64,000 bases of DNA from Chitinophagales bacterium (GTDB lineage: Bacteria; Bacteroidota; Bacteroidia; Chitinophagales; JABDMM01), in NCBI GenBank assembly GCA_013001465.1, contig JABDMM010000029.1:11385-75384 (forward strand), in the 5' to 3' direction. Each line of letters starts with the position of its first letter. Within the stretch, counting starts at the first letter, position 1. The notes beneath the pieces are model-generated. The model was given only the letters and a program-made list of their open reading frames with translations. It made no database searches and had not been told where the DNA came from. Of the stretch, positions 7,233 through 42,526 are shown in pieces. Both the position numbers and the translations under genes were made by a program.

Positions 7233-7233
7233 A

Positions 7234-18181: not shown

Positions 18182-18706
18182 TTATAGAATTCGTTTGATC
18201 CTTTTGGTGAAAAAGTTAACTATGATAACAATATTCAAAGCGATAACCAACACCAGGCTGCCTATCCCAATGATAAAAACTTCTCTGTAAAGATATTTCA
18301 AAAGTCTGGCTTCTTCACCAGCTGAGATTTCATCCTTTAAATGGTTTGCAAATGACTCTATTTCATAGGAATCCATAACTACCGAGAATTTTTGCAGGTT
18401 TGAAAGGATGAAAACAAACAAATGAATATTCAAGAGAAAAATAATGAGCTTAACCCATTTATTCCGAAAAATCAGAATGTCTTTAAAGAAAACACTATAT
18501 CGGAAATAGGTAATGAAAGTAAATATGATCAGAACATTAAACCAATAAAAAGTATAATGAATAGCTGATGTAACTGGCAATAATATGACGTAAGCTGATA
18601 AGACAGTAACCAGCCACCAAATAGCTTCTCTTAAATATTTTAATTTGTTATTAGACGGATGAAAGTCTGAAGTCAGTTTTTGGCTCATATCACTGGCAGC
18701 CTTCAA
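18182..18706 (-). CDS. Hypothetical 4-5 TM membrane protein
   Basis: 174 aa and hydrophobic. It overlaps the upstream kinase-like gene by 17 nt and lies 10 nt from the M3 peptidase gene. Confidence 0.5.
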   Translation of the reverse strand: MKAASDMSQKLTSDFHPSNNKLKYLREAIWWLVTVLSAYVILLPVTSAIHYTFYWFNVLIIFTFITYFRYSVFFKDILIFRNKWVKLIIFLLNIHLFVFILSNLQKFSVVMDSYEIESFANHLKDEISAGEEARLLKYLYREVFIIGIGSLVLVIALNIVIIVNFFTKRIKRIL

Positions 18707-20576
18707 TGCAATTGCCTTGCAGATTTATGATCTGAGCGATACCGAGAACTGAGACTTTAGCCTTGTCACCACTAAAGGGCTCGGCGCTGTCAAACTTGAA
18801 AGGGATAATTAATTTTCCGCTCCTATCAATATAGCCCCATAAGCCATCTTTTGATACTGCTGCTGTGTTTTGGCTGAAGGACTTAACATAATCGTACTCA
18901 ATTTCTCCCAGAACATTGCCGGCTGTTGAAATAAAGCCCCACTTACCATTTAACCTTACAGCAGCTAGTCCATCAGTAAAATTAGTGACGAAATCATATG
19001 ATGCAGGTATTTGTTCTTTCCCATCCGAATTGATGAATCCCCACTTATTTTCTTTTTTAACCATAGCAAGTCCGCCATCGAACTGACCAATATATTGATA
19101 TCTTGGAGGCATCGTTATGTTTCCTTTACCATCCTTTAAGCCTATCTTACCGTTAGCCGCTGTAAATTGTATTCTTTTATCATCTCTAACCTCAATAGGA
19201 GTTTCCGGCGGAATCTTTATACTCTCATTTGGTTTTGGGTTTTTTTTCTCAGCAACCTCGCCTGTAACCATATCCGTTAACTGGCTTGTAGTTTCGTTGG
19301 AAACTTCAGAATTGGAAGCAGGTTGTGGACTTTGAGAAGCGATCACTTCCAGATCTCCTGCGTCTTTCGTTGCCTCTGCTTTCGAATTCTTATGATTAAT
19401 TACCGATATACTGAAGAAGGTGATCGCAAACAAGCCAATCACAATCCAAAGAACTGACCATGTCCAGTTAAGTGCGGTGTCTGTGCTGTCTGATGACTTT
19501 TCTCTCCAACTCTCTTTTCTCGATGACGGCTGCACTGCCGAGTTTATTTTTTCGATCAAGTCATTCTCTTCATCTAACTGACTCAATTGAACTTCTTGTT
19601 CATCTTCGACAAAAATACTTTCTACCAATTCATTATTGTCGAACTCTGTTTTTGGAGTTTCATTAATTGGCTCAGCCCTAGGTTTGGTATCACTCAAGAT
19701 CACATTACTCGTTTCCTCGGAGACTAAATTTTGCTCTATAAATTGAGATGGAACTTCTGCATTGCCTAAAAGGATATCATATGCATCCTTAACTGACTTA
19801 AGCCTGTTTTGAGGATCCACCTGCAGGCATTGGTCTATGAGGTATCTCACTTTTGGAGACAAATCGGCCGCTATCTGACCATGTAATCCAGAAAGTATGT
19901 TATTCTTTAGCTTTTCAGCGCCTAAAGAATTTACAGAGCCAAATGGCGGTTGGCCCATTATCATCTCAAACAGGATCGCTCCAAATGACCAAATGTCTCC
20001 TGAAACAGACCCCTGCTGTCTTCTAAAGTATTCAGGTGGCAAGTATTCTATAGGATCAGAAGAAAAAACCGGCAATGCAAAACCCTTCAATTTAATTTTA
20101 ATATTGCCTTCCTCGTGTTTGATCAAAATATTTTGAGGCTGTAGGTTACCATGAAACAGCTGATTTGAATGGAGGTAATCCAAGCCTTTTAAAACCTGAA
20201 CTAAAATCTCTTTTTTTAGATCGTTAGACGGGAGAGTTCTTAAATAAACTTCTAGAGTAGATGCACCCTCGAAAAGCTGCTGAACAACTATACAGCATGA
20301 ATCGGAGTCCAGTCCCAGATGGTCGGGTGGTTCTATCTGAAAAGAGCTTTTATACTCAAGTATGTTTGGATGAGCAAGCCAGGTCAGATTCTTAACAGCC
20401 TTCTGAATCTCCTCACCTGCTGTATCGCTTTCCTTGATGAGATCTACAAAAACTTCTCTGTCTGTGACATTATCCCGACCTATAAAAGTAAGTCTGGCAT
20501 CAGATTCGAAAAACTTTCTTTCAAAATTAATGGTCAGAAAAGACTGAGATGAAATGTTTAAATCGGTTGTTGACAT
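18690..20576 (-). CDS. Membrane Ser/Thr protein-kinase homologue (predicted pseudokinase) with C-terminal WG/KWG repeats
   Basis: 628 aa. Kinase-fold motifs are present (HPNILEY, LKGLDYLHS, DIWSFGAILFEMIMGQPPF, DPQNRL), but the HRD position reads HGN and the DFG position reads KGF. One TM helix (VLWIVIGLFAITFFSISVI), then repeats of the form W/KWGFI(N/S)..G....P..YD. Confidence 0.8.
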   Translation of the reverse strand: MSTTDLNISSQSFLTINFERKFFESDARLTFIGRDNVTDREVFVDLIKESDTAGEEIQKAVKNLTWLAHPNILEYKSSFQIEPPDHLGLDSDSCCIVVQQLFEGASTLEVYLRTLPSNDLKKEILVQVLKGLDYLHSNQLFHGNLQPQNILIKHEEGNIKIKLKGFALPVFSSDPIEYLPPEYFRRQQGSVSGDIWSFGAILFEMIMGQPPFGSVNSLGAEKLKNNILSGLHGQIAADLSPKVRYLIDQCLQVDPQNRLKSVKDAYDILLGNAEVPSQFIEQNLVSEETSNVILSDTKPRAEPINETPKTEFDNNELVESIFVEDEQEVQLSQLDEENDLIEKINSAVQPSSRKESWREKSSDSTDTALNWTWSVLWIVIGLFAITFFSISVINHKNSKAEATKDAGDLEVIASQSPQPASNSEVSNETTSQLTDMVTGEVAEKKNPKPNESIKIPPETPIEVRDDKRIQFTAANGKIGLKDGKGNITMPPRYQYIGQFDGGLAMVKKENKWGFINSDGKEQIPASYDFVTNFTDGLAAVRLNGKWGFISTAGNVLGEIEYDYVKSFSQNTAAVSKDGLWGYIDRSGKLIIPFKFDSAEPFSGDKAKVSVLGIAQIINLQGNCIEGCQ

Positions 20577-30166: not shown

Positions 30167-31036
30167 ATGCGACAACTCAAGATCTCTAAATCGATTACTA
30201 ACCGTGAAAGTCAGTCGATTGAAAAATACTTACAAGAAATTGGTAAGGTAGACCTGATTTCGGCTGAAGAGGAAGTCAAATTAGCTCGAAGAATTAAGAA
30301 AGGTGACCAGGAAGCGCTGGAAAAATTGGTTAGAGCGAATCTTCGATTCGTTGTATCGGTTGCAAAGCAATATCAAAACAGCAGTCTGTCGCTGAACGAT
30401 TTAATTAATGAAGGGAATTTGGGGCTCGTAAAAGCAGCACAAAAATTCGATGAAACTAAGGGTTTCAAGTTCATTTCTTATGCTGTTTGGTGGATCCGTC
30501 AATCTATAATGCAGGCACTTGCTGAACACTCCAGACTGGTGAGATTACCTTTGAATAAAGTCGGGTCACTAAGCAAGATCAACAAAGCATTCACAGAGCT
30601 TGAGCAGAAGTTCGAGAGAGAGCCTTCTCCTGAAGAGCTTTCTGAAATTCTTGAGATGACTGCGGATGAAATTGAAACTACTGTTCGTGTTTCATCAAGA
30701 CCTGTTTCTGTAGATGCTCCGTTCGCTGATGGCGAAAGTGGATCTTTGCTCGATGTTCTCGAAAATGGACAAGTTGAGAAAACAGATGGGCGTTTGACAT
30801 ATCAGGATTCCCTGAGTGTTGAAACTCAAAGATCTCTTTCTACGCTTACAGAGAAAGAACAACAAGTGATCAAGCTGTTCTTCGGAATTGGCATACCACA
30901 CCCAATGACGTTGGAAGACATTGGAGAATATCTTGGAATTACTCGCGAAAGAGTTAGGCAAATCAAAGACAAAGCTATCAATAAGCTTCGATCTACTTCT
31001 AGAAGTAAATCACTCAAAGCTTATTTGGCTCAGTAG
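30167..31036 (+). CDS. rpoD: Primary RNA polymerase sigma factor (short Bacteroidota sigma-A)
   Basis: 289 aa. Region 2 ([14 protein letters not shown]...[18 protein letters not shown]...[13 protein letters not shown]) and region 4 ([24 protein letters not shown]). Confidence 0.9.
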
Positions 31037-31058
31037 TCCAATCTAATAACCTTTAGAG

Positions 31059-31089
31059 AAGGCTCTCCTTGCACAGGAGGGCCTTTTTT
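31059..31089 (+). terminator. Rho-independent terminator after rpoD
   Basis: A 10-bp stem, aaggctctcc with ggagggcctt (one G-U pair), a 7-nt loop, then TTTTTT. Confidence 0.7.
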
Positions 31090-31107
31090 ATGTGCTGTTG
31101 ATGTAAT

Positions 31108-32640
31108 CTAAGCGATAATACTCACTAAAAGATTGTGAAGCTCCTTACGGTCAGCTTTGCCATTTGCATTGCGTGGGAAACGCTCAACATTGTGAACATC
31201 GTGAGGAATCATATAACTAGGCAGTTTGGATTCAAGGTGAGAAATCAACTTCTCCACTCCAATATTTAGATTTTCGACAAGAAGATGAGGTGTCAGGAGG
31301 CCTTTATGGTTTTTAACAGCGATAAAAGCGACTTTCGCATGAGCACCTAAAAAATTGCGGACAACATGTTCTACCTCGCCAGGTTCTACTCTGTAGCCAT
31401 CAAGCTTTAACTGAAAATCTTTTCTGCCTAAGAAAATATAATTCCCTTCTTCATTAAGATATCCAATGTCCCCGGTATCGTATGCTTTCGAACCATTTGA
31501 CAGAACCAGATATGCCTCTTTAGTCTTCTCTTCATCCTTCCAATATCCATCTGTAACTTGCTTACTACAAAGAGCGATGATTCCTTTTTCACCAGGAGAA
31601 AGAATATTGTGATCCTGGTCTAAAATATAGAATTCCATACCTGGCACAGGTTTACCTATAGGAACAACTCCATTAACCGCTTGTGAAAATGATTCATCGT
31701 TTGACCAGACATACATTGAAGAAGCGCCCGGGCACTCAGAGGGTCCATATATATTTTGAATGATAGCATCCTCTGATAAGCAAGATGACCACTCCACCAT
31801 CAATTCATGTAAAAGAGGTTCACCACAAAACATACTATATCTCAAGGCTGGAAGTTGTAGTTCCTTAATGTAGGGTTTGATATATAACAATGTTGATGGG
31901 ACCAGCATTGAAACAGTGATGTCATGGTCAAGTAGTATGCTTATTATATTATAATACTTAATACCTTCTTCAGGAACAACAAAGCAACTCGCTCCCATAG
32001 AAAGGGGGATGAAGGTCATCATTCCTGCCAGATCAAAGGTCCAATCAAACATTTGGAGAAATCTGTCATCGCTGGAAAGATCATATTGCGATTTGTCAAA
32101 GTATAGTGTAATGAAGTGAGCAAGATTAACGTGCTTCACTAAAACTCCCTTGGGGCGGCCGGTGCTACCTGAGGTGAATAGCATGTATGCAAAGCTGTCA
32201 GCATCAATTTCATTAACAAAAACATCACAATCATCACCTGTTTCAACAGATGTAAGATCGATGCTGCAAAGACCAGCAGCTTTTATATCATATGAATGTT
32301 TTGAAATTTGTAACGGTAGATCACAGTATAACATTACCGAGATCTCAGACTCCTCTATTATTTCCTTAAACCTGTCGTATGGGTTATGCCTGTTTATCGG
32401 TATATACGGAATTCCTGACATTACCAGTGCGATGATTGCCGCATAAGTATGAACATCCTGACCGGTAATTACACCAACAAAGTTCTGATGATTGAAATTT
32501 CTTTCTGCAAACTCTTTTTGGTAGTTCGCCACCAGATTACCTAGGTCATTATAGGTATACCTCTCATTATTGCAGAATAATGCAAGATTACCTCCATGGT
32601 TTTGGAAGCTCTCAATAAAATATTCTGGCAATAGTTTCAT
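31108..32640 (-). CDS. Stand-alone NRPS/DltA-type adenylation enzyme (amino-acid activating)
   Basis: 510 aa with A-domain core motifs: YMLFTSGSTGRPKGV (A3), TFDLAG (A4, Asp retained), NIYGPSE (A5), YDTGDIG (A7), GRKDFQLKLDGYRVEPGEVE (A8), NGKADRKEL (A10). No fused T or C domain. Confidence 0.8.
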   Translation of the reverse strand: MKLLPEYFIESFQNHGGNLALFCNNERYTYNDLGNLVANYQKEFAERNFNHQNFVGVITGQDVHTYAAIIALVMSGIPYIPINRHNPYDRFKEIIEESEISVMLYCDLPLQISKHSYDIKAAGLCSIDLTSVETGDDCDVFVNEIDADSFAYMLFTSGSTGRPKGVLVKHVNLAHFITLYFDKSQYDLSSDDRFLQMFDWTFDLAGMMTFIPLSMGASCFVVPEEGIKYYNIISILLDHDITVSMLVPSTLLYIKPYIKELQLPALRYSMFCGEPLLHELMVEWSSCLSEDAIIQNIYGPSECPGASSMYVWSNDESFSQAVNGVVPIGKPVPGMEFYILDQDHNILSPGEKGIIALCSKQVTDGYWKDEEKTKEAYLVLSNGSKAYDTGDIGYLNEEGNYIFLGRKDFQLKLDGYRVEPGEVEHVVRNFLGAHAKVAFIAVKNHKGLLTPHLLVENLNIGVEKLISHLESKLPSYMIPHDVHNVERFPRNANGKADRKELHNLLVSIIA

Positions 32641-32675
32641 TCAGGCATTATTCTTTTCTTTCTAATACGGAGGAA

Positions 32676-33020
32676 TTACGCTCTGTTGTTTTCATCCGGA
32701 AAAACGATCTTGGGTTGGATATTTTTAGCTTTGTCTTTTTCTACAAGGCCGTAACTTAACACAATAACGATATCGCCAACTTCGGCCTTTCTTGCAAGAG
32801 GTCCGTTGAGACATATAACTCCACTTCCGCGCTCCCCTTTTAATACATATGTTTCAGACCGTTCTCCATTATTGACATTACAGATCAGTACTTGCTCACC
32901 TTCTATCAAGTCGGCTTTATCCATTAGATCTTCATCTATGGTAATACTGCCAATATAGTTAAGCTCAGTTTCAGTTATTCTGGCTCTGTGAATTTTAGAT
33001 TTCAGTACTGATATAAGCAT
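32676..33020 (-). CDS. panD: Aspartate 1-decarboxylase proenzyme
   Basis: 114 aa. The start is LKSKIHRARITETELNYIGSITID, with the Gly-Ser self-cleavage site. It aligns along its length with E. coli PanD from memory. Confidence 0.9.
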   Translation of the reverse strand: MLISVLKSKIHRARITETELNYIGSITIDEDLMDKADLIEGEQVLICNVNNGERSETYVLKGERGSGVICLNGPLARKAEVGDIVIVLSYGLVEKDKAKNIQPKIVFPDENNRA

Positions 33021-33038
33021 CTCTTCGCATTATTTATT

Positions 33039-34298
33039 TCATGATCTTCCCTCATTCTCATCTTTAGCTCCTACCAAAACAGCCATGCTGCCGGGTAGAT
33101 GTTTATTATCATACATCTTTTGAACACTATCGCCTATTTTATCATATGGAAAAACTTCAGAAACGATGGGTTCAATTTCTTTATTTCTAACTAAGTCATT
33201 AAACAAAGTATGCTCTTCGACACTAGCACCGTGAGACCCTTGTACCCTTTTTTTAAAGATCCATAAAAAACGTAGGTCGAAAGAAGCCATATACCCGGTA
33301 GTTCCTGCACATGTTATTACCATTCCTCCGGGATCACAAACAAATAATGAAGTTGGGAAAGTCATTTCTCCAGGGTGTTCAAGCACTATAAATGGAGCTT
33401 TGCCTCCAGTGATAGTTAGCAGTTCTTTGTTAAAGGCTTTTACACCCTTTCTCCATTCGAGGTATGCCGGGTCGTCCTGAACAGCAGTTTTCAACGCGCC
33501 CCAGTGTGAATAATTACTCCTGTTTATGGTAAGCGCACCTAGCTTTTTACAAAATTCTGCTCTTTCATCACTACTAACTACTGCAACCGGAATACCTCCA
33601 GCTCTCTTGACTAGTTGTATACCCATTACACCAAGCCCCCCGGAACCTCCCCAGATCAAAACCACATCTCCCTTTTTAACGGTATGTGGATGGTGGTGTA
33701 GCAACATTCGATAAGCGGTTGCACCGGAAAGCATATAGACAGAGGACTCCGCCCAGCTTAGATGTTTTGGTTTCGGAACACATTGAAAATGTTTTGCTTT
33801 ACAAAATTGAGCAAACGATCCCCAATTTGTCTCAAAACCCCATGCCCGTAATGTCGTTGAAAGCATATCATCGCCGCCTGCTGCCAGATATGGTTCATTG
33901 GGATCGATATGTGCGGGTAATACAACGATCTCGTCTCCAACAGAGACGTTCTTTACATCTTTTCCAATTTTCCAGACTATACCGGATGCATCAGATCCCG
34001 CTATATGAAAATCGCCATTAGCCTCACCTCTGATTTCTCTTAATTTAATGACATCTACGGGATAGCCTGTTGAGGCCCAAACGCAATTATAGTTGACTCC
34101 CGCAGCTTTTACAGCTATCAGAACTTCATCATCCGCTATTTCTGGTACTTTTATTTTTTCTGGCTTGTAAGCATCTTTAGGCTCCCCGAACCGGTCCTGT
34201 CTTATTACTTGTGCATGCATGTACTCAGGCACTACGCCTAGTTCTGGTAGGCTGCCCACGTCAACAATTTCTACTTTATCAATTTTAGAACTTTCCAT
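33039..34298 (-). CDS. Crotonyl-CoA carboxylase/reductase (CCR) family enoyl-CoA reductase
   Basis: 419 aa, aligned by eye to Streptomyces CCR. Shared stretches include AAGVNYNCVW, AWGFETNWGSFAQF...PKPKHLSWAE, VLIWGGSGGLG and GSHGAS. The Asn, Phe-Glu and His positions of the CO2 pocket appear conserved. Confidence 0.75.
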   Translation of the reverse strand: MESSKIDKVEIVDVGSLPELGVVPEYMHAQVIRQDRFGEPKDAYKPEKIKVPEIADDEVLIAVKAAGVNYNCVWASTGYPVDVIKLREIRGEANGDFHIAGSDASGIVWKIGKDVKNVSVGDEIVVLPAHIDPNEPYLAAGGDDMLSTTLRAWGFETNWGSFAQFCKAKHFQCVPKPKHLSWAESSVYMLSGATAYRMLLHHHPHTVKKGDVVLIWGGSGGLGVMGIQLVKRAGGIPVAVVSSDERAEFCKKLGALTINRSNYSHWGALKTAVQDDPAYLEWRKGVKAFNKELLTITGGKAPFIVLEHPGEMTFPTSLFVCDPGGMVITCAGTTGYMASFDLRFLWIFKKRVQGSHGASVEEHTLFNDLVRNKEIEPIVSEVFPYDKIGDSVQKMYDNKHLPGSMAVLVGAKDENEGRS

Positions 34299-34311
34299 TA
34301 GATTTCTTTTT

Positions 34312-35868
34312 TTATTGAACCGCTTTGTCTTTTCCTTCCCAAAAAGGAGCTCTTAGCTTTCTTCGCAACAATTTCCCTCTTGGGCTACGCGGTAATTCGT
34401 TTTTCCACTCTACCCTTATAGGTCTTTTGTATTCCGGTAAATGGTCGATACACCAGTTCAGTAAGTCTTTGTCATCCATTTCGCCATTAAATGGAACAGC
34501 AATAACGCAAAGCCCTTCACCATATAAATCATGAGGAATTCCGACAACTGCGACATCTTTTATCCTGGGATGCTTCAGCAATTCTTTTTCAACCTCGGCC
34601 GGGAAAATATTGATCCCTCTTGAGACGATCATATCATTTATCCTATCCACAAGAAATAGATAGCCCTCACTGTCTAAAAACCCTACATCACCCGAATGAA
34701 ACCATCCTTGGTCGTCAAACATTTTTTCATTTCGTTCTTCAAGGTTCCAGTATCCATCAATTACATTTGGCCCTCTCAAACATACCTCCCCGGATTCATT
34801 TGTTCCGGCTATGGATCCGTCAGCTTTCATAATAACAAGCTCAACGTCATGAAGTGGTCGACCAACAGACTTTATAATGTCTTGATACTTTGAATCTTTA
34901 TCATTCATATAGTTTACATGATCATCGAACCTTAAAAGAGTAGATATCCCTGTGGTTTCAGTTAGGCCATATCCCTGCGTCATATAGCATTCAAACAGTT
35001 CAATGGCTTTGGCAATTACATTTAACGTGGAAGGCGAACCTCCATATTGAATATGCTGAAGAGAAGAGAAATCATATACTTCTGAGCCTTTCATCTCGAC
35101 AATAGATTGCATCATAACCGGAGCGAGGTGTCCGTTTGTTACTTTATATTCCTGTACGGCCTCACAAAAGCCTTTTGGACTAAACATTTCCAGCAATACA
35201 TTGGTACAGCCCACATACAGTCCAAGTATAAAAAACCCAATCCCGGGCATGCTATGTAGTTTGGCTTCAACAAGATTGACAGAACTTGATCCCAGGCATG
35301 GCGTCTCGTTCACTACTTTATTCAATTCAAAGAATAGGTTTGCATTTGAAATAGGGACGCCTTTTGGATAGCCTGTAGTGCCTGATGTATAAAGATGAAA
35401 TAGACAGTCTTTTGTGTTTACTTCAACATTCAAATTTTCTGTTTTGTCCTTGTATTCCTTCTGAATCTTCGGATAAAGTGTTTCAAGAACATGTGAAGGG
35501 ACATTAAATTCTCGATTAGCGTCTTTAACCACCTTTTCGAAATACTCGCTATAAAATACGTGTTTAACTGTTGAGTCCTTTATTACATGGGCCAACTCAT
35601 CAGAATTGTATTCGTAGTTAAGTGGGACTGGAATAATACCTGCATTTATTGCAGCATGAAAAAACTGAATTATCAGGTCGTTGTTGAGATCAAGTATTCC
35701 AATTCGATCCCCTTTTTTGAGACCCAGATCAGTGAAATAATGAGCAACTCTATTTATGTCGTTGTTGAATTCTTTATAGCTAAAGACTTTGTCCTCGAAC
35801 ATATATGCTGTTCTAAGGGGATGAGCCCCGGCTCTGTATTCTATTAACGATTTAAATGTTTCGGCCAT
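34312..35868 (-). CDS. ANL-family acyl-CoA synthetase / AMP-dependent ligase
   Basis: 518 aa. Motifs LYTSGTTGYPKGV, GYGLTETT, FHSGDVGFLDSEGYLFLVDRINDMI and PRSPRGKLLRR. Confidence 0.85.
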   Translation of the reverse strand: MAETFKSLIEYRAGAHPLRTAYMFEDKVFSYKEFNNDINRVAHYFTDLGLKKGDRIGILDLNNDLIIQFFHAAINAGIIPVPLNYEYNSDELAHVIKDSTVKHVFYSEYFEKVVKDANREFNVPSHVLETLYPKIQKEYKDKTENLNVEVNTKDCLFHLYTSGTTGYPKGVPISNANLFFELNKVVNETPCLGSSSVNLVEAKLHSMPGIGFFILGLYVGCTNVLLEMFSPKGFCEAVQEYKVTNGHLAPVMMQSIVEMKGSEVYDFSSLQHIQYGGSPSTLNVIAKAIELFECYMTQGYGLTETTGISTLLRFDDHVNYMNDKDSKYQDIIKSVGRPLHDVELVIMKADGSIAGTNESGEVCLRGPNVIDGYWNLEERNEKMFDDQGWFHSGDVGFLDSEGYLFLVDRINDMIVSRGINIFPAEVEKELLKHPRIKDVAVVGIPHDLYGEGLCVIAVPFNGEMDDKDLLNWCIDHLPEYKRPIRVEWKNELPRSPRGKLLRRKLRAPFWEGKDKAVQ

Positions 35869-35882
35869 TTTGTTGCGATTGT

Positions 35883-36881
35883 TTATTCAGGGACAACGTA
35901 AAGTGCTGAACCACCAGAAAACCCTGCCCCTGCTGTAAGCATTAATATGGTTTGTCCTGGTTTAAGATCTCTTTTTTCGTATACGGAATTCAGAGTAAAT
36001 GGTATAGTTCCGGCCATGCTATTACCCATAATGTCTATAGTTACTTCCATTTTCTCCAAAGGAATCTCCAAAGCTTCTGCGACTTTTTTCATTACATACA
36101 TGTTTGCCTGATGCATAACAAAATAATCTACATCACCTGGTTTAATTCCATATGAACTACATACCTTTTCTCCAAGGTTTTTCATAACTGCTACAGCTCT
36201 TTGAAGAAACTCTTTACTATCAATCGTCATAATAGTACCATGCAATCCATCATCGAGTGTTTTATGTGTGGGGGGTATAAGGCTTCCACCAGCAGGGACA
36301 TTCAATTTGTCGATCCCGTAGCCATCTTGCCACAATGCAATTTCCATGAACCCTTCCTCTGTGGAGCATTTGCTTAAAACAACTGCGCCGGCACCATCAC
36401 CAAAAACGGGGATAAATCTTTCATCCTTTTTAGTAAGGAAACGAGATTTTATATCGGCACCTGCAACGAGAACATATTCTGCACCGGTTGCTAATAATCG
36501 TACAGCTCTGTCTAACGCATAAACAAAAGATGCACAAGCATTAACTGTATCTTCTGCAGGGCATGTCGCACCAAGAATGTGCTGAATCCTACCTGCGGCA
36601 GCAAGGCTAGTATAATCTGCCGTACCGGTTCCAAGAATAATTCTGTCGAGTTGCTCTGGTTTGATATTGGCGCGCTCCATAGCTATTTTACAGGCTTCCG
36701 CCGCCATGTGGCTCGTTCCTGTACCTTCATCAGCCCAATGTCTTGTGGTTATACCTACTACTTTTTCGATATACTCAGGATCCAGATCCAGATCCCATGC
36801 ATCGATCACTTCCTGATTGGTTACAGGTTTGCCCGGCAAATGACCACCGGTTCCGATAATTTTAACTCCCCAACCTTTCAT
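35883..36881 (-). CDS. FabH-like beta-ketoacyl synthase III
   Basis: 332 aa. Cys-His-Asn triad motifs NACASFVYAL, MHQANMYV and MGNSMAGT, with a C-terminal GAGFSGGSA. Confidence 0.85.
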   Translation of the reverse strand: MKGWGVKIIGTGGHLPGKPVTNQEVIDAWDLDLDPEYIEKVVGITTRHWADEGTGTSHMAAEACKIAMERANIKPEQLDRIILGTGTADYTSLAAAGRIQHILGATCPAEDTVNACASFVYALDRAVRLLATGAEYVLVAGADIKSRFLTKKDERFIPVFGDGAGAVVLSKCSTEEGFMEIALWQDGYGIDKLNVPAGGSLIPPTHKTLDDGLHGTIMTIDSKEFLQRAVAVMKNLGEKVCSSYGIKPGDVDYFVMHQANMYVMKKVAEALEIPLEKMEVTIDIMGNSMAGTIPFTLNSVYEKRDLKPGQTILMLTAGAGFSGGSALYVVPE

Positions 36882-36905
36882 AGGTTTAACTACTGCCTTA
36901 AATAA

Positions 36906-37952
36906 TTAGACTCTGATCAACAATCCGCCCCAGGAAATTCCTCCCCCAACGACAGACATCATTAATAAGTCGTCCTTTTTAATAGTTTCTGATTTAATTG
37001 CTTTGTGAAGCGCCAGCAGTGAACTTACTGCACCACAATTAGCATATTCAGAAACTACATTTACCACTTTTTCGGTCGGTATATTTGCTTTTTCAGTAGC
37101 AAGTAAAACCGTTTTTTTCGTTGATTGGTGTGGTATAAAACAATCGACGTCTTCCGGCTTAATATTGGCATGCCGATATAATTTGTCCGGGAGCCATTCC
37201 CAGATCTGATTCATATAAGCTGTAGCCTTTGGTGCCATCAACATCAGGTATTCGTTATTCTTGATCGCTTTTTCAGTTGGAGGAAGAGCACCTTGTACAC
37301 CATACATCGAAGCATAATGGCCATCAGAGTCTAGATAAGAAAGCAACAACTTGCTTCCATTTTTTTCAACTCTGGATAAAACAACTGCTGCAGCCGCATC
37401 TCCTCCCGCGAATACTTGATTTGTGTTAAAATCTGCAATTTTAGAAAATGTTTCTGCAGACACAATAAGCACATTCTTCAGACCGCTCTGAAGACTTAAA
37501 AAACCCAACGTCATTGCATAAAGATTGGAAGCACATCCGGTTTTCATTTCGAAAGATGCGCATTTCATTCCTAACTGTCCACCAACATATGTCGCAGTTG
37601 AGGAGGTATATCTTGGCGATGTCGTTGTAACTGAAATCAAAAGATCTATATCTTCTGGTAATAATTCTGCATCGTGCAAAGCATTCTTAATCGCATGATA
37701 CATCATATCCACAGAAGTGGCTTCATTCTCAGTAAGCACGTGACCAGGGGTGTGAACCCAAAACCGCTTACTGAAACCCCATTTATCCTCTATATAATTT
37801 TTATCTATTCCAATGTCAAGCAATTTGGTCTTCCAATCTGCTCCGTATTTCAGATTATATATATCCTCGTTGCTGACCCATTTACCCAACTCTTCCGGGA
37901 ATGCTGTGGCAATTCCCTTGATTTCTACATTGCTCAAATTCTCTATATACAT
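36906..37952 (-). CDS. Divergent KASIII/thiolase-fold condensing enzyme
   Basis: 348 aa. Motifs TGCASNLYAM (Cys), IPHQSTKK (His) and YANCGAVSS (Asn). It is more divergent than the neighbouring FabH-like gene. Confidence 0.7.
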   Translation of the reverse strand: MYIENLSNVEIKGIATAFPEELGKWVSNEDIYNLKYGADWKTKLLDIGIDKNYIEDKWGFSKRFWVHTPGHVLTENEATSVDMMYHAIKNALHDAELLPEDIDLLISVTTTSPRYTSSTATYVGGQLGMKCASFEMKTGCASNLYAMTLGFLSLQSGLKNVLIVSAETFSKIADFNTNQVFAGGDAAAAVVLSRVEKNGSKLLLSYLDSDGHYASMYGVQGALPPTEKAIKNNEYLMLMAPKATAYMNQIWEWLPDKLYRHANIKPEDVDCFIPHQSTKKTVLLATEKANIPTEKVVNVVSEYANCGAVSSLLALHKAIKSETIKKDDLLMMSVVGGGISWGGLLIRV

Positions 37953-38059
37953 ACCCCAGTCAGATAAATTATTCTTTTATATAAAGTTTTCAGGAATTTA
38001 AATTAAGTTTTCCACAAAAACAAGTGCAAAGTTCCTTAAATAATATGAATTATTATAAC

Positions 38060-38914
38060 TTAATCGCTTGATAAACTTGCGTTCTTTAAAGATTTAACGT
38101 GCAAATCCAATTGTGGAAAGGGAATCGTAATTCCATGTTCACGGAATCTTTTTTCGATCATAAATCGCATATTACTTTTGATATTTTCAATACCTAAAAT
38201 GTCATCAGAGGCAAAGAAAATATCAAAATGTAGCGCAGAGTCACCAAACTCTAAGAATCTTACGATTGTGGGCGGGTATCGTTTCACATCCTGGCAATCC
38301 TTTGCAACAGAAAGCAAAATTGATCTAACTTTTTCTGGATCAGAGCCATAGGCAACAGATACAGGAAGTGAAAATCTTGTCAAGTGTGTGCTATGACTCC
38401 AGTTAATTACACTGTTTACTGTAATCTTTGAATTTGGTACTACAACATCGATCTTCTCCTTGGTTTCTATTTGTGAGGTTCTAATGCCTATTTTCCTGAC
38501 AATACCAACTTTACCATCAACTTCCACGATGTCACCGACCTCAACTGACCCTTCAAAGAGAAGTATTAACCCTGATACCAGGTCATTAAATGTCTGCTGC
38601 AATCCTAAACCAACCCCAACCAGAAGGGCAGCAGAACCTGCAAGGAGCAGTGTTATATTAAGTCCTACAATTTGCAGTGCCGTAAGAAGCCCGACGATAT
38701 AAATAAAATATTTTATCAATCTGGAAGTAGCAAACTGTCTCCCTTTATCGATATTCCTTTGTTTGAAATAGCGCTTTAGTAAAACTTTGTCTAAAAAAAA
38801 CACCATTAACCTGGCTGCCAAAAGAACAATTACAAACAACAGTAATTCATCAATAGAAAGTTGAAAGTCTTTATACTTAAAGACATTGTATTTCAATATC
38901 TCATTGATGCTCAT
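38060..38914 (-). CDS. Small-conductance mechanosensitive channel (MscS family)
   Basis: 284 aa. Three TM helices plus a beta domain, FEGSVEVGDIVEVDGKVGIVRKIGIRTSQIET. Confidence 0.85.
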   Translation of the reverse strand: MSINEILKYNVFKYKDFQLSIDELLLFVIVLLAARLMVFFLDKVLLKRYFKQRNIDKGRQFATSRLIKYFIYIVGLLTALQIVGLNITLLLAGSAALLVGVGLGLQQTFNDLVSGLILLFEGSVEVGDIVEVDGKVGIVRKIGIRTSQIETKEKIDVVVPNSKITVNSVINWSHSTHLTRFSLPVSVAYGSDPEKVRSILLSVAKDCQDVKRYPPTIVRFLEFGDSALHFDIFFASDDILGIENIKSNMRFMIEKRFREHGITIPFPQLDLHVKSLKNASLSSD

Positions 38915-38961: not shown

Positions 38962-39360
38962 CTATTCTGAAACATAATTCTCCATGATTGAATGAATGCG
39001 TCTGGTGTCACTATATACCTGCCAATATTCGATTTGGTTTCCTTTAATTTGTATCCGCCAGGCACAGGGTTGCCTCCATTTGTGATCTTTGTTCTCGCTT
39101 CCCATGTAGCTTCCGGAAGCAAAACCGAATAATCCAACCAAATCGCCCTCCAGAAAATAATTTTCTACTTCTATAAAGTAATCAGGAAACCACTGGAAAT
39201 AGGACTTCCAGTTTTGAAGCATCATCGACCTACCTTTAAACATCTTACCGCCAGCATCGACATAACGATGATTTTCAGTCATCAATGATTCCAGGGATTC
39301 AATATCTTTCTGGTTAATTGATTGAATAAATTGAAGGACGACATCTATAGGATCGGCCAT
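38962..39360 (-). CDS. NTF2-like (SnoaL-like) domain protein
   Basis: 132 aa. The pattern VLQFIQSINQKDIESLESLMTENHRYVD is typical of SnoaL/NTF2-like proteins. Confidence 0.55.
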   Translation of the reverse strand: MADPIDVVLQFIQSINQKDIESLESLMTENHRYVDAGGKMFKGRSMMLQNWKSYFQWFPDYFIEVENYFLEGDLVGLFGFASGSYMGSENKDHKWRQPCAWRIQIKGNQIEYWQVYSDTRRIHSIMENYVSE

Positions 39361-39396
39361 GATTACAGTAACTTCGTTTCAACAAAAATTAAAATA

Positions 39397-39972
39397 GTGA
39401 AAATAGGCTTATTTTTTGGTTCTTTTAATCCCATTCATACAGGCCATCTGATTATTGCAAATTATCTACACAGTCTTTCAGATCTCGACAAGGTCTGGTT
39501 TGTTGTTTCTCCGCAGAACCCTTTTAAATCTAAATCAACGCTCCTGAATAAGTATGATCGTTTTCATCTTGTCCAACTTGCGGTGGAAGATAACGATAAT
39601 CTGGAAGCGAGCAACATAGAGTTCAGCATGCCGTTGCCTTCTTATACCATAGATACTCTTGTTTATTTAAAAGAAAAGCACCCGGATAAACAATTTTCAT
39701 TGATCATGGGTTCTGATAATCTAAAGAGCTTTCATAAGTGGAAAAACCATGAGTCCATTTTAGAAGATTACGATATTTATGTGTACAGGCGATTGGGAAG
39801 CGATACCCATCAGTTGGGAGAGCATTCAAATGTTCATATTATTGACGTGCCTTTTATTGAGATTTCTTCAACGTTTATAAGAGAAAGTATTAAAGCAGGA
39901 AGGTCGGTTAAGTATTTTGTACCCGAACCAGCCTTAAAATATATTGAAGAAATGAATTATTATTCAGAATAA
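39397..39972 (+). CDS. nadD: Nicotinate-nucleotide adenylyltransferase
   Basis: VKIGLFFGSFNPIHTGHL (HxGH motif) and ISSTFIR. GTG at 39397 is preferred because the track start at 39322 overlaps the divergent gene. Confidence 0.85.
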   Translation: MKIGLFFGSFNPIHTGHLIIANYLHSLSDLDKVWFVVSPQNPFKSKSTLLNKYDRFHLVQLAVEDNDNLEASNIEFSMPLPSYTIDTLVYLKEKHPDKQFSLIMGSDNLKSFHKWKNHESILEDYDIYVYRRLGSDTHQLGEHSNVHIIDVPFIEISSTFIRESIKAGRSVKYFVPEPALKYIEEMNYYSE

Positions 39973-39974
39973 AG

Positions 39975-41354
39975 TTAAGCAGGGCCTTCATACTCAGAAA
40001 CTACGAATCTTAGCTTTCCACTTGATGTGCGTTCAATTTTATCTACATATCTGATATCGAAGTAATCCGCATCTAATCTTGAACGGATCTCCTGGATAAG
40101 ACTTTCTTCGTCATTCTGTTGATAGCTTGAAGACTTTACCACATCAAAGTGAATGAATCCATCCTTCTCCTGGACAATTCTCGCTTCGACTACATTGATC
40201 ATGTCCTTGAAAATATGGTCCATTCTCCCGATTTTAGTTCCATTGCGCAATGTCACGAAATCTTCGCTTCTTCCATCAACCCTGTCTACAATTCGACTCT
40301 CTCTACCACACTGACATTTGTGATTTGCTGTAATTGTTGCTACATCATTTGTATCGTATCGCAGAAAAAACATTGCGGGGTTAGAAAATGAGCTGCCTAC
40401 AATCCTATATTGATCTTTCTGGCCTTGGATAGGAATGAATTCCACAAATGAGTAGTCCTCATCAACATGCATATTGCCATATTCACATTCTGAAATGTTT
40501 GCCACAGGTTCTGACAATCCATAATGTTGTATCGGGCTAACGCCGAAAGCTTCTTTTATCAATCTCTTGTGACTTTCAAGAAGATTTTCGGCGCCGATAG
40601 ACACCTTCTTGACCTTGTGTTCAAACCGCAATCCATTCTCCAACATAAGAGAAGCTAAATTGGAAAGGAATGAGGGATAACCGTGAAACCAGCTAATTTT
40701 TTCATGATTAATTTTATCAATGTATGCAGGGAGGGTTTTCTTGTTGAGGTGATACATGCTGAACATATGTCTTTTGGTTGCCTTAACGGTTCTCCAATAT
40801 GGCGGTTTCGATTGATTTATCGGTACAATTGTACGGCCTCCAAAAAAAGCGACCCATGTTGCGAACCCGATCCCCCTATTCATTCTAAATCTCCACCAGA
40901 CTGCCCATTTCTCTTGTTCACAGCTTACTGACTCAGGATAGATCAGTCCGGCACCGGTGGTACCCGAGGTATGGGTGATTAAGTGCGGGTGGCTTTTATA
41001 GTTATCGTTTACAACTTGATCAATATTCTCTCTTATTGAAGTTTTCGTAGTGATGGGCAGCTTCTCAATACCTTTGAGATCAGAAAGCTCTGAAGGTTCA
41101 AAACCAACTTCTTTAAATAGTCTTCTATAATATATTGAATGTTGTTGAGCGCGTATTAAGTTGTCTTTCAAGCGTTCAATTTGTAATTGCTTTAATTTAT
41201 CGATGGGCCATCTATCCCTATATCTTATTGAATCTAGTATTCGAAAGAATTCTTTATTATAACGGCGCTTAACCATTCTCTTTCCGTATAATTCGATTAG
41301 AATTTTCTGTATAAAAAGAGGTGATTGGTGGTATATTCGTTCGGTCATATTCAT
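39975..41354 (-). CDS. Phenylacetate-CoA ligase-like (CapK/F390-synthetase family) adenylate-forming enzyme
   Basis: 459 aa. TSGTTGAG P-loop-like motif with a PaaK/CapK-like size and layout. Confidence 0.7.
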   Translation of the reverse strand: MNMTERIYHQSPLFIQKILIELYGKRMVKRRYNKEFFRILDSIRYRDRWPIDKLKQLQIERLKDNLIRAQQHSIYYRRLFKEVGFEPSELSDLKGIEKLPITTKTSIRENIDQVVNDNYKSHPHLITHTSGTTGAGLIYPESVSCEQEKWAVWWRFRMNRGIGFATWVAFFGGRTIVPINQSKPPYWRTVKATKRHMFSMYHLNKKTLPAYIDKINHEKISWFHGYPSFLSNLASLMLENGLRFEHKVKKVSIGAENLLESHKRLIKEAFGVSPIQHYGLSEPVANISECEYGNMHVDEDYSFVEFIPIQGQKDQYRIVGSSFSNPAMFFLRYDTNDVATITANHKCQCGRESRIVDRVDGRSEDFVTLRNGTKIGRMDHIFKDMINVVEARIVQEKDGFIHFDVVKSSSYQQNDEESLIQEIRSRLDADYFDIRYVDKIERTSSGKLRFVVSEYEGPA

Positions 41355-41404
41355 CGCCGATCAATTTTATGGTGAATTTAGCATAATCGTTTGAGGGTTT
41401 AAGC

Positions 41405-42526
41405 ATGAAGAAAAAAATCCTAATGATCGGCCCTTGCAGGGGTCATAATATACAAAGGTATCTGGATGTCTTTCAAAAAGATAAGGACCTTTATGACTTT
41501 GCCTTTGCAAACTACCATCCAAAGCGTGAGTTTTCAAGTCGCAGCTATCCCGGCCTTGAAATTTTTGATGTTTGGAATGTTTTTAAGCTGCTCTTGAGGT
41601 TATTAAGAAATAATGATATCCTCTGGATTCATATGCATGTTCCAATACCATTGATACTTTTCGCCTTGATTTTTCGAAATAGGAAATCTGTTGTAAACTA
41701 TAATATCTGGGGCGAGTCCATTCCACGAGTTGCATCTGGTAAAGGATTAAAGGCTGGAATATACCGATTCATAATGCGTGAAGCGGATCACGTCATGTGC
41801 CCATGGTATGCTACTTATGAAATAATAAAAGAGAACATAGGTGGAGTTAATGCCTTTGTTCACCCTATGGGAATGAATGGTGAATTTTTTGATCTTGAAA
41901 CCAAACAAGAACTTCAGTCAGAAACTCAGCAGTTTTTAAATACACTTCCAAATGATGTCACTAAATTATATTTTCCAAAGAGCTTTTCGAACGCTAGTGA
42001 TCACGACTTAATTATAGAGGCTGGTAAAATCTTGTTAGATAAAGGTGTCCGCAACTTCATTATATATTTCTGGATGGGTAACCAGTTGAACCAGGAACTT
42101 GAAGCACTGTACAGACAAAAAATAAGTGAACTGGGGTTAAATGATCACATTTCTATTATACATCATAGTTTTTTGCCGACATATGATATCCAGCAAGTCT
42201 GGCTGAAAATGGATGTTGGGTTGCAGATTGCAATATTCGATCTCTTATCGACCACTATTCTTGAACCAATGTTCCTCGAAAAGGAATTTATCGCCACAGA
42301 TATCGCTCCATATCGAATCATAGAAGAAAAATATAATGTAGACCTTGATCTGATCCCGATGGACAAAAATGCGCTAGCGTCTAGAATGGAAAGGCTGATA
42401 AAGGGCTACAAAACCAACGAACTGATAATGAAAAAAAGAAAGGAGGTAACAGAGACCCATTTCAATACTTACAATAACATTCCTTCGATCGTCAGTTATC
42501 TTATCACCGAGGGAAGAAAAAAGTAA
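41405..42526 (+). CDS. Glycosyltransferase (GT-B, GT4-like)
   Basis: 373 aa. The N-terminus (KILMIGP) and two-domain layout suggest a GT-B fold. Motif support is weak. Confidence 0.5.
   Translation: MKKKILMIGPCRGHNIQRYLDVFQKDKDLYDFAFANYHPKREFSSRSYPGLEIFDVWNVFKLLLRLLRNNDILWIHMHVPIPLILFALIFRNRKSVVNYNIWGESIPRVASGKGLKAGIYRFIMREADHVMCPWYATYEIIKENIGGVNAFVHPMGMNGEFFDLETKQELQSETQQFLNTLPNDVTKLYFPKSFSNASDHDLIIEAGKILLDKGVRNFIIYFWMGNQLNQELEALYRQKISELGLNDHISIIHHSFLPTYDIQQVWLKMDVGLQIAIFDLLSTTILEPMFLEKEFIATDIAPYRIIEEKYNVDLDLIPMDKNALASRMERLIKGYKTNELIMKKRKEVTETHFNTYNNIPSIVSYLITEGRKK

Follow-up and report, generated by a model that had tools for sequence, protein, structure and literature searches.

The six minus-strand genes at 31108–37952 of the window (the whole 64-kb stretch of DNA analysed) may be a composite operon, made of a trimmed branched-lipid cassette and a PanD–Adom pair. 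We prefer this explanation, including the mechanism proposed for it below, with slightly less than even confidence. Module 1 (KAS1, KAS2, ANL and ECR; 33039–37952) would be a trimmed, deep-branching version of a cassette of other genomes. Module 2 (PanD and Adom; 31108–33020) would be a lineage-specific pair that already stood beside rpoD. The second module would make beta-alanine and activate an amino acid, and it need not belong to the pathway of the first. Two loci carry the composite argument: L044, where PanD–Adom stands without the cassette, and L048, a short relative.

The ORF listing gave the genes in the order KAS1, KAS2, ANL, ECR, PanD, Adom, at the same coordinates as the original prediction. 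The features of the locus are as follows:

36906–37952, minus strand: KAS1, divergent KASIII (348 aa)
35883–36881, minus strand: KAS2, FabH/BioZ-like KASIII (332 aa)
34312–35868, minus strand: ANL, FadD13/feruloyl-CoA synthetase/4CL-type acyl-CoA ligase (518 aa)
33039–34298, minus strand: ECR, enoyl-CoA carboxylase/reductase of the CCR family (419 aa)
32676–33020, minus strand: PanD, aspartate 1-decarboxylase (114 aa)
31108–32640, minus strand: Adom, stand-alone NRPS/DltA-type adenylation enzyme (510 aa)
31054–31090, plus strand: intrinsic-terminator-like hairpin and T-run between the convergent rpoD and Adom
37953–38059, minus strand: 107-nt gap 5′ of KAS1, a possible promoter region

The spacing from KAS1 to Adom was 24, 14, 13, 18, and 35 nt. 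No terminator-like site was found in any intergenic gap of the six genes, so a single transcript is plausible, although internal promoters may exist; the operon-like packing described earlier was borne out. At the 3′ side of Adom, the convergent sigma-70 gene rpoD (30167–31036) is 71 nt away, and the terminator claimed on that side corresponds to a real, terminator-like hairpin (31054–31090, −23 kcal/mol, z = −3.96). The upstream neighbour of KAS1 is an MscS gene (38060–38914) at a distance of 107 nt. The Bacteroidota −7 box had only a near-match in this gap, GAACTTTG (38034–38027), which is weak evidence, as the window shows no enrichment of this motif. The surrounding genes rpoD, mscS, mnmG, serS, and rho are housekeeping genes. 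The GC and GC3 of the arrangement showed no anomaly; therefore, it is not a recent import. Across the 64-kb window there was no ACP/PCP, C domain, thioesterase, SDR, MBOAT, panC, or PKS/NRPS, and the operon contained no dehydratase or acyl-CoA dehydrogenase as a source of enoyl-CoA. The original prediction was right that carrier protein and other fab genes are missing, and right not to take the operon for the housekeeping FAS locus.

Pfam and NCBIfam confirmed the predicted family of every gene, and KAS1 and KAS2 were both assigned to ACP_syn_III. KAS1 is divergent, scoring 164 bits against PRK09352 (cut-off 249), with an N-terminal extension of ~70 aa; its best match among solved structures was FabH 4ryb (134 bits; OleA 39 bits). 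KAS2 is FabH-like, with 246 bits against the same model, and its best PDB matches were the BioZ structures 6kue/9j6e (167–169 bits), with E. coli FabH at 153 bits. Cys140, His275, and Asn305 of KAS1 were invariant throughout the family, as were Cys116, His257, and Asn287 of KAS2 in 33 orthologues. With the Cys-His-Asn triad in all orthologues, both KASIII are, to judge from their sequences, catalytically complete. Alignments of KAS1 and KAS2 to OleA were partial and reached 39–45 bits, against 134–168 bits for FabH, and in blastx neither NltA nor NltB was a significant hit.

ANL scored 408 bits against PRK06187 (AMP-binding, CoA-ligase type) and 200–222 bits against CoA ligase structures (8weu/8wev 222 bits, FadD13 201 bits). 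Its match to NltC was 42 bits, with 27% identity across 97 aa. ECR scored 495 bits against TIGR01751 (crotonyl-CoA carboxylase/reductase), above the 378.55 cut-off, and it matched AntE and 9kva at 420 bits. Motifs common to carboxylating CCRs (N-x-N, (F/Y)-E, GSH) are retained, and the earlier view that alkylmalonyl-CoA supplied by ECR is the likely extender unit was upheld. The pocket-gating position of ECR is Gly357, which aligns with a Gly in CinF and with Val350 in AntE. The M. extorquens CCR has Phe at this position, and 24 of the 25 cassette ECR orthologues having a residue there carry Phe or Tyr. The AntE V350G mutant has a broader substrate scope (PMC6164871). The enoyl-CoA used in the window would be of medium or long chain, because Gly357 is CinF-like.

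PanD scored 146 bits against TIGR00223, above the 106 cut-off, and has the self-cleavage motif Gly24-Ser25. Being 65–73% identical to thousands of Bacteroidota PanDs, it is by these comparisons of the ordinary Bacteroidota type. A dedicated biosynthetic role, as first proposed for it, is therefore unproven. The panD order in other Bacteroidota is panC-panD-LPG_synthase_TM-CTP_transf; in this lineage PanD and panC are separated. Adom scored 269 bits against TIGR01733 (amino-acid adenylation), which is under the cut-off, and 244 bits against the DltA model (cut-off 476). Its best match was LgrA A2, a Gly-module A-domain (174 bits), and DltA reached 143–156 bits. The sequence contains residues typical of amino-acid-activating A-domains, namely the Asp of FDxx and the Lys of the C-terminal GK, and there is no carrier domain. 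The closest relative of Adom (P0092, 52% identity) likewise adjoins PanD and rpoD. Locus L044, from a related contig, reads PanD (70% identity)-Adom-HTTM-rpoD (93% identity), and upstream of it lies DUF5916, not the cassette.

The cassette of other genomes has the order KAS1-KAS2-FabG-like SDR-ANL-ECR-DltB-like MBOAT. It was complete in 21 species-representative genomes of the Chitinophagales, Flavobacteriales, and Leptospirales, and its carriers (loci L004–L034) include Parafilimonas, Ilyomonas, Flavobacteriales MAGs, Leptospira ainazelensis, and L. ainlahdjerensis. The nearest relatives of KAS1, KAS2, ANL, and ECR of the window are cassette genes, at ~40–55% identity and with the order kept. 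KAS1 is 40–44% identical to the first cassette gene in loci L003–L036, and the KAS2 homologue is the second cassette gene in every case. The SDR was present in all 28 loci with KAS1, KAS2, and ANL, whereas PanD or Adom was near the cassette in none of ~30 cassette loci. Compared with the cassette, the window is without the SDR and MBOAT, has PanD-Adom downstream, and carries Gly for Phe/Tyr in ECR. Relative L048 keeps MscS-KAS1-KAS2-ANL, also without the SDR, as far as its contig reaches. The original prediction treated the six genes as an orphan unit. This description did not hold, since four of them belong to a six-gene cassette conserved in at least 21 other species, never with PanD or Adom, and PanD-Adom stands beside rpoD without the cassette in L044. 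No characterised Bacteroidota pathway matches the gene set, in agreement with the prediction.

An 80-aa carrier protein occurs at some cassette loci, and DUF1574/SGNH-superfamily proteins occur at those of the Leptospira group. A PAL/TAL-like lyase and a second CoA ligase follow ECR in L015, L026, and L028. A dedicated ACP is absent from most cassette loci; therefore, the housekeeping ACP or CoA must serve. No large PKS-like ORF was found in the 10-kb flanks of ~30 orthologous loci, and Adom and MBOAT were never together in the loci examined. DUF1574 is a member of the SGNH-hydrolase superfamily, and pairs of MBOAT and SGNH proteins (PatA/PatB, AlgI/AlgJ) function in glycan O-acylation (PMC9487903). 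The cassette is widespread and uncharacterised, and it probably builds a branched fatty-acyl compound.

In the proposed mechanism, ANL would activate a free acid, either a fatty acid or an aryl acid, as the CoA thioester, and ECR would convert a 2-enoyl-CoA to alkylmalonyl-CoA by reductive carboxylation. KAS1 and KAS2, as a heterodimer or in two successive steps, would then carry out decarboxylative Claisen condensation(s) of an acyl-CoA primer with alkylmalonyl-CoA, giving an alpha-alkyl-beta-ketoacyl thioester. In the full cassette the SDR would reduce the beta-keto group, and the DltB-like MBOAT would hand the acyl group over to an acceptor in the cell envelope; in the window these steps would be missing or encoded elsewhere. 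The product is likely an alpha-alkyl beta-ketoacyl thioester or a lipid derived from it, as the family assignments suggest.

A single six-gene pathway is unlikely. Here beta-alanine from PanD, activated by Adom without a carrier protein, would be joined to the alpha-alkyl-beta-ketoacyl unit that KAS1/KAS2, ANL, and ECR make; either it would be N-acylated by that unit or it would serve as the unit's starter, yielding an N-acyl-beta-alanine lipoamino acid or a 3-alkyl-piperidine-2,4-dione-type lactam. The gaps of 13–35 nt (18 nt between ECR and panD) without a terminator, the Asp and Lys of Adom with its LgrA match, and the separation of PanD from panC are consistent with it. The cassette also takes up accessory precursor modules elsewhere (the lyase and ligase of L015, L026, and L028), and dedicated PanD homologues have precedent in KirD, which makes beta-alanine for kirromycin, and CrpG, which makes methyl-beta-alanine for cryptophycin. 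However, the pair occurs without the cassette in L044 and at none of the cassette loci, PanD does not stand apart from housekeeping PanDs, and there is neither a carrier protein nor a condensation/amide-forming enzyme. We also doubt that the genes supply primers for unusual fatty acids, with ANL activating an unusual acid, ECR acting mainly as an enoyl reductase, and the KASIII priming the housekeeping FAS, so that membrane or envelope lipids would receive omega-substituted or branched fatty acids. KAS2 is nearly FabH-grade and closest to BioZ, a primer-selecting KASIII, and the rarity of a dedicated ACP and the PAL/TAL and ligase genes of some loci would fit. Against this, ECR is far above the CCR equivalog cut-off with its carboxylating motifs intact, and two KASIII are redundant for priming alone.

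Supply of alkylmalonyl-CoA to a PKS or other consumer elsewhere in the genome has a low probability. A FabH homologue, an acyl-CoA ligase, and a CCR are the content of revR, revS, and revT (PMC5187497), and ECR has the CinF-like long-chain pocket residue. However, neither the 64 kb nor the flanks of the orthologous loci contain a candidate PKS, and two active KASIII and a conserved MBOAT would be superfluous. A lipstatin/nocardiolactone/Ole-type route is very improbable; an OleA-like pair would join two acyl-CoAs head to head, ANL would be a beta-lactone synthetase, and beta-alanine would decorate the product. The order of two thiolase-fold genes with an ANL gene after them is superficially that of lstA-lstC and nltA-nltC, and the full cassette has an SDR between KAS2 and ANL. 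However, the KASIII match FabH far better than OleA and do not match NltA or NltB significantly, their triads are intact whereas LstB and NltB are truncated and without a triad, and ANL resembles CoA ligases rather than NltC. The window has no OleD/LstD-type reductase, and the presence of ECR implies a decarboxylative condensation, not a head-to-head one. Membership in these families, as suggested by the original prediction, is largely refuted at sequence level by the FabH-type, triad-bearing KASIII, the FadD/4CL-like ligase, and the absent reductase. We give almost no credence to a chance adjacency of housekeeping fabH, fadD, and panD. PanD is standard and the neighbourhood is housekeeping, but KAS1 is far under the FabH cut-off, and KAS1, KAS2, ANL, and ECR are co-inherited over three orders and two phyla. 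In Bacteroidota, a CCR is not known to be a housekeeping gene.

For the composite operon, the closest known logic, compared by gene content, is the alkylmalonyl-CoA supply by RevR/RevS/RevT (reveromycin, Streptomyces sp. SN-593) and by similar CCR cassettes, with the expected chemistry fatty acid → acyl-CoA → 2-enoyl-CoA → 2-alkylmalonyl-CoA. In contrast to the Rev set, the window has no PKS consumer nearby and two KASIII genes, one from a distinct divergent family. The hosts are Bacteroidota/Leptospirales instead of an actinomycete, and beyond the Rev content the full cassette has a FabG-like SDR plus a DltB-like MBOAT. The likeness to Lst/Nlt/Ole lies in the adjacent thiolase-fold genes with an ANL behind them and in the conceptual end point, an alpha-branched beta-oxygenated fatty acid. 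LstABCD(EF), NltABCD, and OleABCD use OleA-type thiolases and a triad-less B subunit, whereas the thiolases here are FabH-type; unlike OleC/NltC, ANL is of the CoA-ligase type. As for the Dlt system (DltA–DltD), Adom is DltA-like, the cassettes of other genomes encode a DltB-like MBOAT, and some of their loci have the 80-aa carrier protein or a DUF1574 partner, but the window is without DltB, DltC, and DltD. In mycolic and corynomycolic acid synthesis (FadD32, AccD4, Pks13, CmrA), an activated acyl group and a 2-carboxyacyl-CoA form a 2-alkyl-3-ketoacyl product by Claisen condensation, followed by SDR reduction and acyl transfer to an envelope acceptor. The enzymes are unrelated, with KASIII in place of Pks13, ECR of the biotin carboxylase, and MBOAT of the mycolyltransferases, and the resemblance is purely a functional analogy.

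ORF calling showed the same six tightly packed minus-strand genes as the original prediction, and Pfam and NCBIfam agreed with the gene families that it had named. In the direction of transcription, the genes are:

KAS1, 36906–37952, minus strand: divergent KASIII (ACP_syn_III); FabH subfamily score 163.8 bits against a cut-off of 249
KAS2, 35883–36881, minus strand: KASIII (ACP_syn_III), nearly FabH-grade; 246.3 bits against a cut-off of 249
ANL, 34312–35868, minus strand: AMP-binding enzyme of the CoA-ligase type (Pfam/NCBIfam), 518 aa
ECR, 33039–34298, minus strand: crotonyl-CoA carboxylase/reductase (TIGR01751), 495.1 bits, above the equivalog cut-off of 378.55
PanD, 32676–33020, minus strand: aspartate 1-decarboxylase (TIGR00223), 146.4 bits, above the cut-off of 106
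Adom, 31108–32640, minus strand: stand-alone NRPS/DltA-like adenylation enzyme (Pfam/NCBIfam)

The intergenic gaps within this run are 24, 14, 13, 18 and 35 nt. Upstream, a 107-nt gap leads to an MscS gene, and downstream a 71-nt gap leads to a convergent sigma-70 (rpoD-like) gene. The predicted terminator on the rpoD side was recovered as a hairpin 3′ of rpoD (−23 kcal/mol, z = −3.96), and no terminator-like site was found in any intergenic gap of the run. In the promoter scan of the window, sigma-70-like sites were below the shuffle expectation (14 vs. 25.8) and the Bacteroidota −7 motif TAnnTTTG was at chance (65 vs. 68.7), with no exact match in the 107-nt gap or 5′ of panD. The 64-kb window contains no carrier protein (ACP/PCP), as had been anticipated for the operon, and no SDR, MBOAT, panC, PKS or NRPS. 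The remaining genes are housekeeping genes, including mnmG, serS and rho. The GC and GC3 contents of all six genes are in line with those of their neighbours, so there is no sign of recent import, and recent horizontal transfer was rejected.

The public annotation of KAS1 (P0001) has 343 aa and the longest ORF has 348 aa; therefore, a different start codon was picked in the public annotation. The short contig L048 of a close relative encodes the 348-aa form. Past the MscS gene and a SnoaL-like protein, positions 39322–42526 carry a cytidylyltransferase-like gene (plus strand), a 459-aa protein, comparable in size to F390-synthetase/CapK, with only a weak AMP-binding match (25.7 bits), and a glycosyltransferase of the GT4 type. 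These genes may form a small locus for surface polysaccharide, with no obvious tie to the operon. The gene at 18690–20576 combines a Ser/Thr protein kinase with WG-containing beta-propeller repeats (four stretches of PF14903).

The original prediction suggested that the operon may be a lipstatin/nocardiolactone-like pathway to a beta-hydroxy-acid or beta-lactone-type lipid. The lipstatin, nocardiolactone and olefin (Lst/Nlt/Ole) pathways are marked by OleA-type thiolases, an OleC-type beta-lactone synthetase and an OleD-type SDR, and their B subunit (LstB/NltB) is a shortened protein without the Cys-His-Asn triad (Robinson et al., 10.1101/856955). KAS1 and KAS2 scored 134–168 bits against FabH structures and 39–45 bits against X. 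campestris OleA, the latter over the N-terminal part only, and a head-to-head, non-decarboxylative thiolase of the OleA type was rejected. The best structure match of KAS2 was BioZ, a 3-oxopimeloyl-ACP synthase. The NltA, NltB and NltC constructs were taken from the supplement of 10.1101/856955; with their printed text containing OCR errors, blastx of NltA/NltB against KAS1/KAS2 gave nothing significant (best 26 bits). Both KASIII proteins have the full triad (Cys140, His275 and Asn305 in KAS1; Cys116, His257 and Asn287 in KAS2), which is invariant in the orthologues, and neither was accepted as a triad-less B subunit. In pairwise scores, ANL reached 42 bits against the OCR-error-bearing NltC construct (27% identity over 97 aa) and 200–222 bits against feruloyl/fatty-acyl-CoA synthetases and FadD13, and a beta-lactone synthetase of the OleC/LstC/NltC type was likewise rejected. 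The 64-kb window has no SDR homologue that could represent an OleD/LstD/NltD-type reductase. Membership thus fails on each testable feature because of the KASIII scores, the triads, the ANL scores and the absent SDR. Judged from these comparisons, the operon is outside the Lst/Nlt/Ole family.

Other KASIII families were also weighed. DarB/dialkylresorcinol, pyrone-forming (MxnB/CorB) and PqsBC-type enzymes scored 29–75 bits, or 31–53 bits against a cut-off of 550, and were rejected since these scores are far below those for FabH. A housekeeping FabH was rejected because KAS1 and KAS2 are both below the FabH subfamily cut-off and their context is a conserved cassette, not fab/pls genes.

This cassette was first seen in the genomic contexts of two KAS1 relatives. 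The KAS1 alignment was then scanned over one genome per species, which gave 41 loci that were typed by ORF calling with phmmer and BLAST clustering and showed the same pattern. Beyond an identical protein in a Chitinophagales bacterium MAG, the KAS1 relatives are just 40–44% identical, and the JGI search gave no relative closer than 44% (KAS1) or 43% (Adom). The full six-gene set KAS1-KAS2-SDR-ANL-ECR-MBOAT was found in 21 species-representative genomes, including Parafilimonas, Ilyomonas, further Chitinophagales, Flavobacteriales MAGs, Leptospiraceae, Leptonemataceae and other Spirochaetota; the named spirochaetes are Leptospira ainazelensis and L. ainlahdjerensis. An SDR was present in all 28 loci holding KAS1, KAS2 and ANL, and the MBOAT in the 21 complete loci. 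The SDR resembles FabG, and the MBOAT resembles DltB (TIGR04091, 138–172 bits, under the cut-off). Against the window proteins, the orthologues scored 250–325 (KAS1), 300–430 (KAS2), 350–480 (ANL) and 410–560 bits (ECR) by phmmer.

The window keeps the cassette order of KAS1, KAS2, ANL and ECR and lacks both the SDR, which elsewhere lies between KAS2 and ANL, and the DltB-like MBOAT. Contig L048 is likewise SDR-less, with the order MscS-KAS1-KAS2-ANL and identities to the window of 85% (MscS), 89% (KAS1), 82–84% (KAS2) and 79% (ANL).

The cassette loci differ in their surroundings. One Chitinophagales sub-clade (L009, L015, L026 and L035) has an 80-aa PP-binding protein directly 5′ of KAS1. 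In L026, this carrier protein lies at 7555–7797, and a second example element of the sub-clade at 6102–7517. The DltB-like MBOAT is divergently transcribed in these four loci, and an ECF sigma/anti-sigma pair, a Wzy-type O-antigen ligase-like gene and a GT2 glycosyltransferase are neighbours; this setting is suggestive of the acylation of envelope glycans or lipids. In the same sub-clade, an aromatic amino-acid ammonia-lyase of the PAL/TAL type (TIGR01226, 372 bits; FlxA-like, 300 bits) and another CoA ligase, also FadD/4CL-like, are encoded 3′ of ECR at L015:15765–18958, L026:13571–16770 and in L028. The pair looks like a precursor-supply module for cinnamoyl- or coumaroyl-CoA, which are enoyl-CoAs that an ECR could carboxylate.

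The spirochaete loci are rearranged. In the Leptospiraceae-type loci (L018, L024, L030 and L036), ECR is followed by a fatty-acid-desaturase-like protein (DesA model, 58 bits), the MBOAT on the opposite strand, one or two copies of a ~400-aa protein with no NCBIfam match and then KAS1-KAS2-SDR-ANL. The Leptospira loci (L002/L025 and L034) encode between ANL and ECR a protein of the DUF1574 family, which has been assigned to the SGNH-hydrolase superfamily (PMC9487903). One Chitinophagaceae MAG has the cassette at L005 and a solitary second KAS1 paralogue without partners at L023. Distant KAS1-like proteins (24–27% identity) were found in Casimicrobiaceae, Burkholderiales and Gemmatimonadaceae (L037–L043). 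Each of their genes is preceded by a ~310-aa ORF with a weak match to the SDR query (26–29 bits), and these pairs may be a separate two-gene system.

PanD and Adom have a different distribution. Neither was found within 10 kb of any of the 28 loci with KAS1, KAS2 and ANL. The window PanD has the self-processing site Gly24-Ser25 (NYIGSITID) and shares 65–73% identity with thousands of ordinary PanDs from Bacteroidota. The closest relative of Adom (P0092, 52% identity) is encoded on contig L044, in the order DUF5916, PanD (70% identity), A-domain, HTTM (opposite strand) and rpoD (93% identity). The HTTM gene between the A-domain gene and rpoD (L044:5862–7214) encodes a membrane protein resembling vitamin-K-dependent gamma-carboxylase. 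No KASIII, ligase or ECR is present on L044; its gene order means, therefore, that the PanD-A-domain-rpoD neighbourhood exists apart from the cassette. Five ACP/DltC queries found no carrier protein in the window or on L044. Remoter Adom homologues (~40% identity) lie away from PanD, and their neighbours are small carrier proteins, SGNH/GDSL proteins or formyl-/sulfo-transferases. Two of the Bacteroidota PanD relatives have the conserved order panC-panD-LPG_synthase_TM-cytidylyltransferase (L049:5008–7851 and L052:150–2886), and an LPG_synthase_TM gene is also found near a distant A-domain homologue (L045:11789–12724). Adom scored 238–244 bits against DltA models with cut-offs of 476 and 560; a Dlt system was rejected on these scores and on the absence of an MBOAT or carrier protein in the window. 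An approximate motif-based reading of the Adom specificity code is D-L-M-S-M-C-I-G-A-K, and our literature search found no set of beta-alanine A-domain codes to set beside it.

The six genes had been regarded as an orphan unit. Four of them belong to the conserved cassette and the PanD-Adom pair occurs separately, so that description was abandoned; of the predicted synteny, the KAS1-KAS2-ANL-ECR order holds in relatives and the PanD/Adom part does not. The six-gene set is a composite, in which a trimmed, deep-branching cassette variant lies upstream of a lineage-specific panD/A-domain pair, and the unity of all six genes is doubtful. We consider it improbable that they jointly make a carrier-protein-independent hybrid metabolite with beta-alanine joined to an alpha-branched lipid. 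In full, the hybrid reading would have an ECR with an enlarged Gly357 pocket supply long-chain alkylmalonyl-CoA, KAS1/KAS2 combine it with ANL-activated acyl-CoA, and Adom activate beta-alanine from PanD, a combination that we regard as unlikely. If true, the six genes would yield either an alpha-branched beta-keto lipo-beta-alanine, representing a new class, or a 3-alkyl-piperidine-2,4-dione, and the lineage would have swapped the ancestral SDR/MBOAT "export" half for an amino-acid-capping half.

The structures closest to the window ECR were 9kva and AntE (420 bits), and M. extorquens CCR scored 397 bits. The CO2-pocket residues of the K. setae ECR are Asn, Phe/Tyr-Glu and His. N69/N71, (F/Y)155-E156 and H356, their putative counterparts, are invariant over 27 cassette ECRs. 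The N-x-N, (F/Y)-E and G-S-H motifs of the window ECR align with those of AntE, CinF and M. extorquens CCR. At the substrate-pocket position, the window ECR has Gly357, AntE has Val350, the crotonyl-specific M. extorquens enzyme has Phe, and CinF, which acts on 2-octenoyl-CoA, has Gly. The AntE chains 4y0k and 4y1b differ solely at position 350, and AntE V350G was reported to broaden the substrate scope (PMC6164871). Twenty-five cassette orthologues have a residue at this position, which is Phe/Tyr in 24 of them and Gly only in L029. From these residues we infer that a typical cassette ECR would act on a short enoyl-CoA, which KAS2 and the SDR would plausibly provide locally. In the window, where the SDR is missing, the ECR would carboxylate an enoyl-CoA of medium or long chain length instead, formed from fatty acids that the ligase has activated.

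The analysis brings to light an uncharacterised conserved cassette, predicted to encode two active-type FabH-like KASIII enzymes, an SDR, a ligase, an ECR and an MBOAT, that is common to Chitinophagales, Flavobacteriales and Leptospirales, including two named Leptospira species. To our knowledge, ECRs are seldom found other than in actinomycetes, myxobacteria and proteobacteria with the ethylmalonyl pathway. Our literature search found nothing relevant on PanD, CCR and KASIII in Bacteroidetes, or on the combination of MBOAT, KASIII and crotonyl-CoA. The coupling of an ECR to stand-alone KASIII enzymes and a membrane acyl-translocase suggests that envelope lipids or glycans may receive alpha-branched acyl groups by a route that needs no PKS. 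The window version is a natural "minimal" variant, SDR-less and MBOAT-less, with a long-chain-type ECR pocket and an attached panD/A-domain pair, and its compactness suits it to heterologous expression. Of greater interest is the six-gene, MBOAT-bearing cassette, which occurs in named Leptospira species.

We propose that ANL would activate a fatty acid and that the window ECR would carboxylate the derived medium/long-chain enoyl-CoA to alkylmalonyl-CoA. KAS1/KAS2 would then run a decarboxylative condensation with this alkylmalonyl extender to give an alpha-alkyl-beta-ketoacyl thioester; we argue for this step because two catalytically complete FabH-like enzymes adjoin the ECR. Where the cassette is complete, reduction of the thioester would fall to the SDR, and the DltB-like MBOAT would hand the reduced acyl product to an envelope acceptor. 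PatA/PatB and AlgI/AlgJ are systems in which an MBOAT protein and an SGNH partner cooperate like this (PMC9487903).

The nearest known system is that of reveromycin, in which RevS and RevT, with the FabH homologue RevR, supply alkylmalonyl-CoA from fatty acids (PMC5187497). By family searches, the window has the same content of a FabH homologue, an acyl-CoA ligase and a CCR (PMC5187497). The window differs in having no modular PKS consumer within 64 kb, and the flanks of the orthologous cassette loci showed no ORF family of PKS size. By analogy, the module would behave most like the alkylmalonyl-CoA logic of RevRST combined with a free-standing KASIII condensation.
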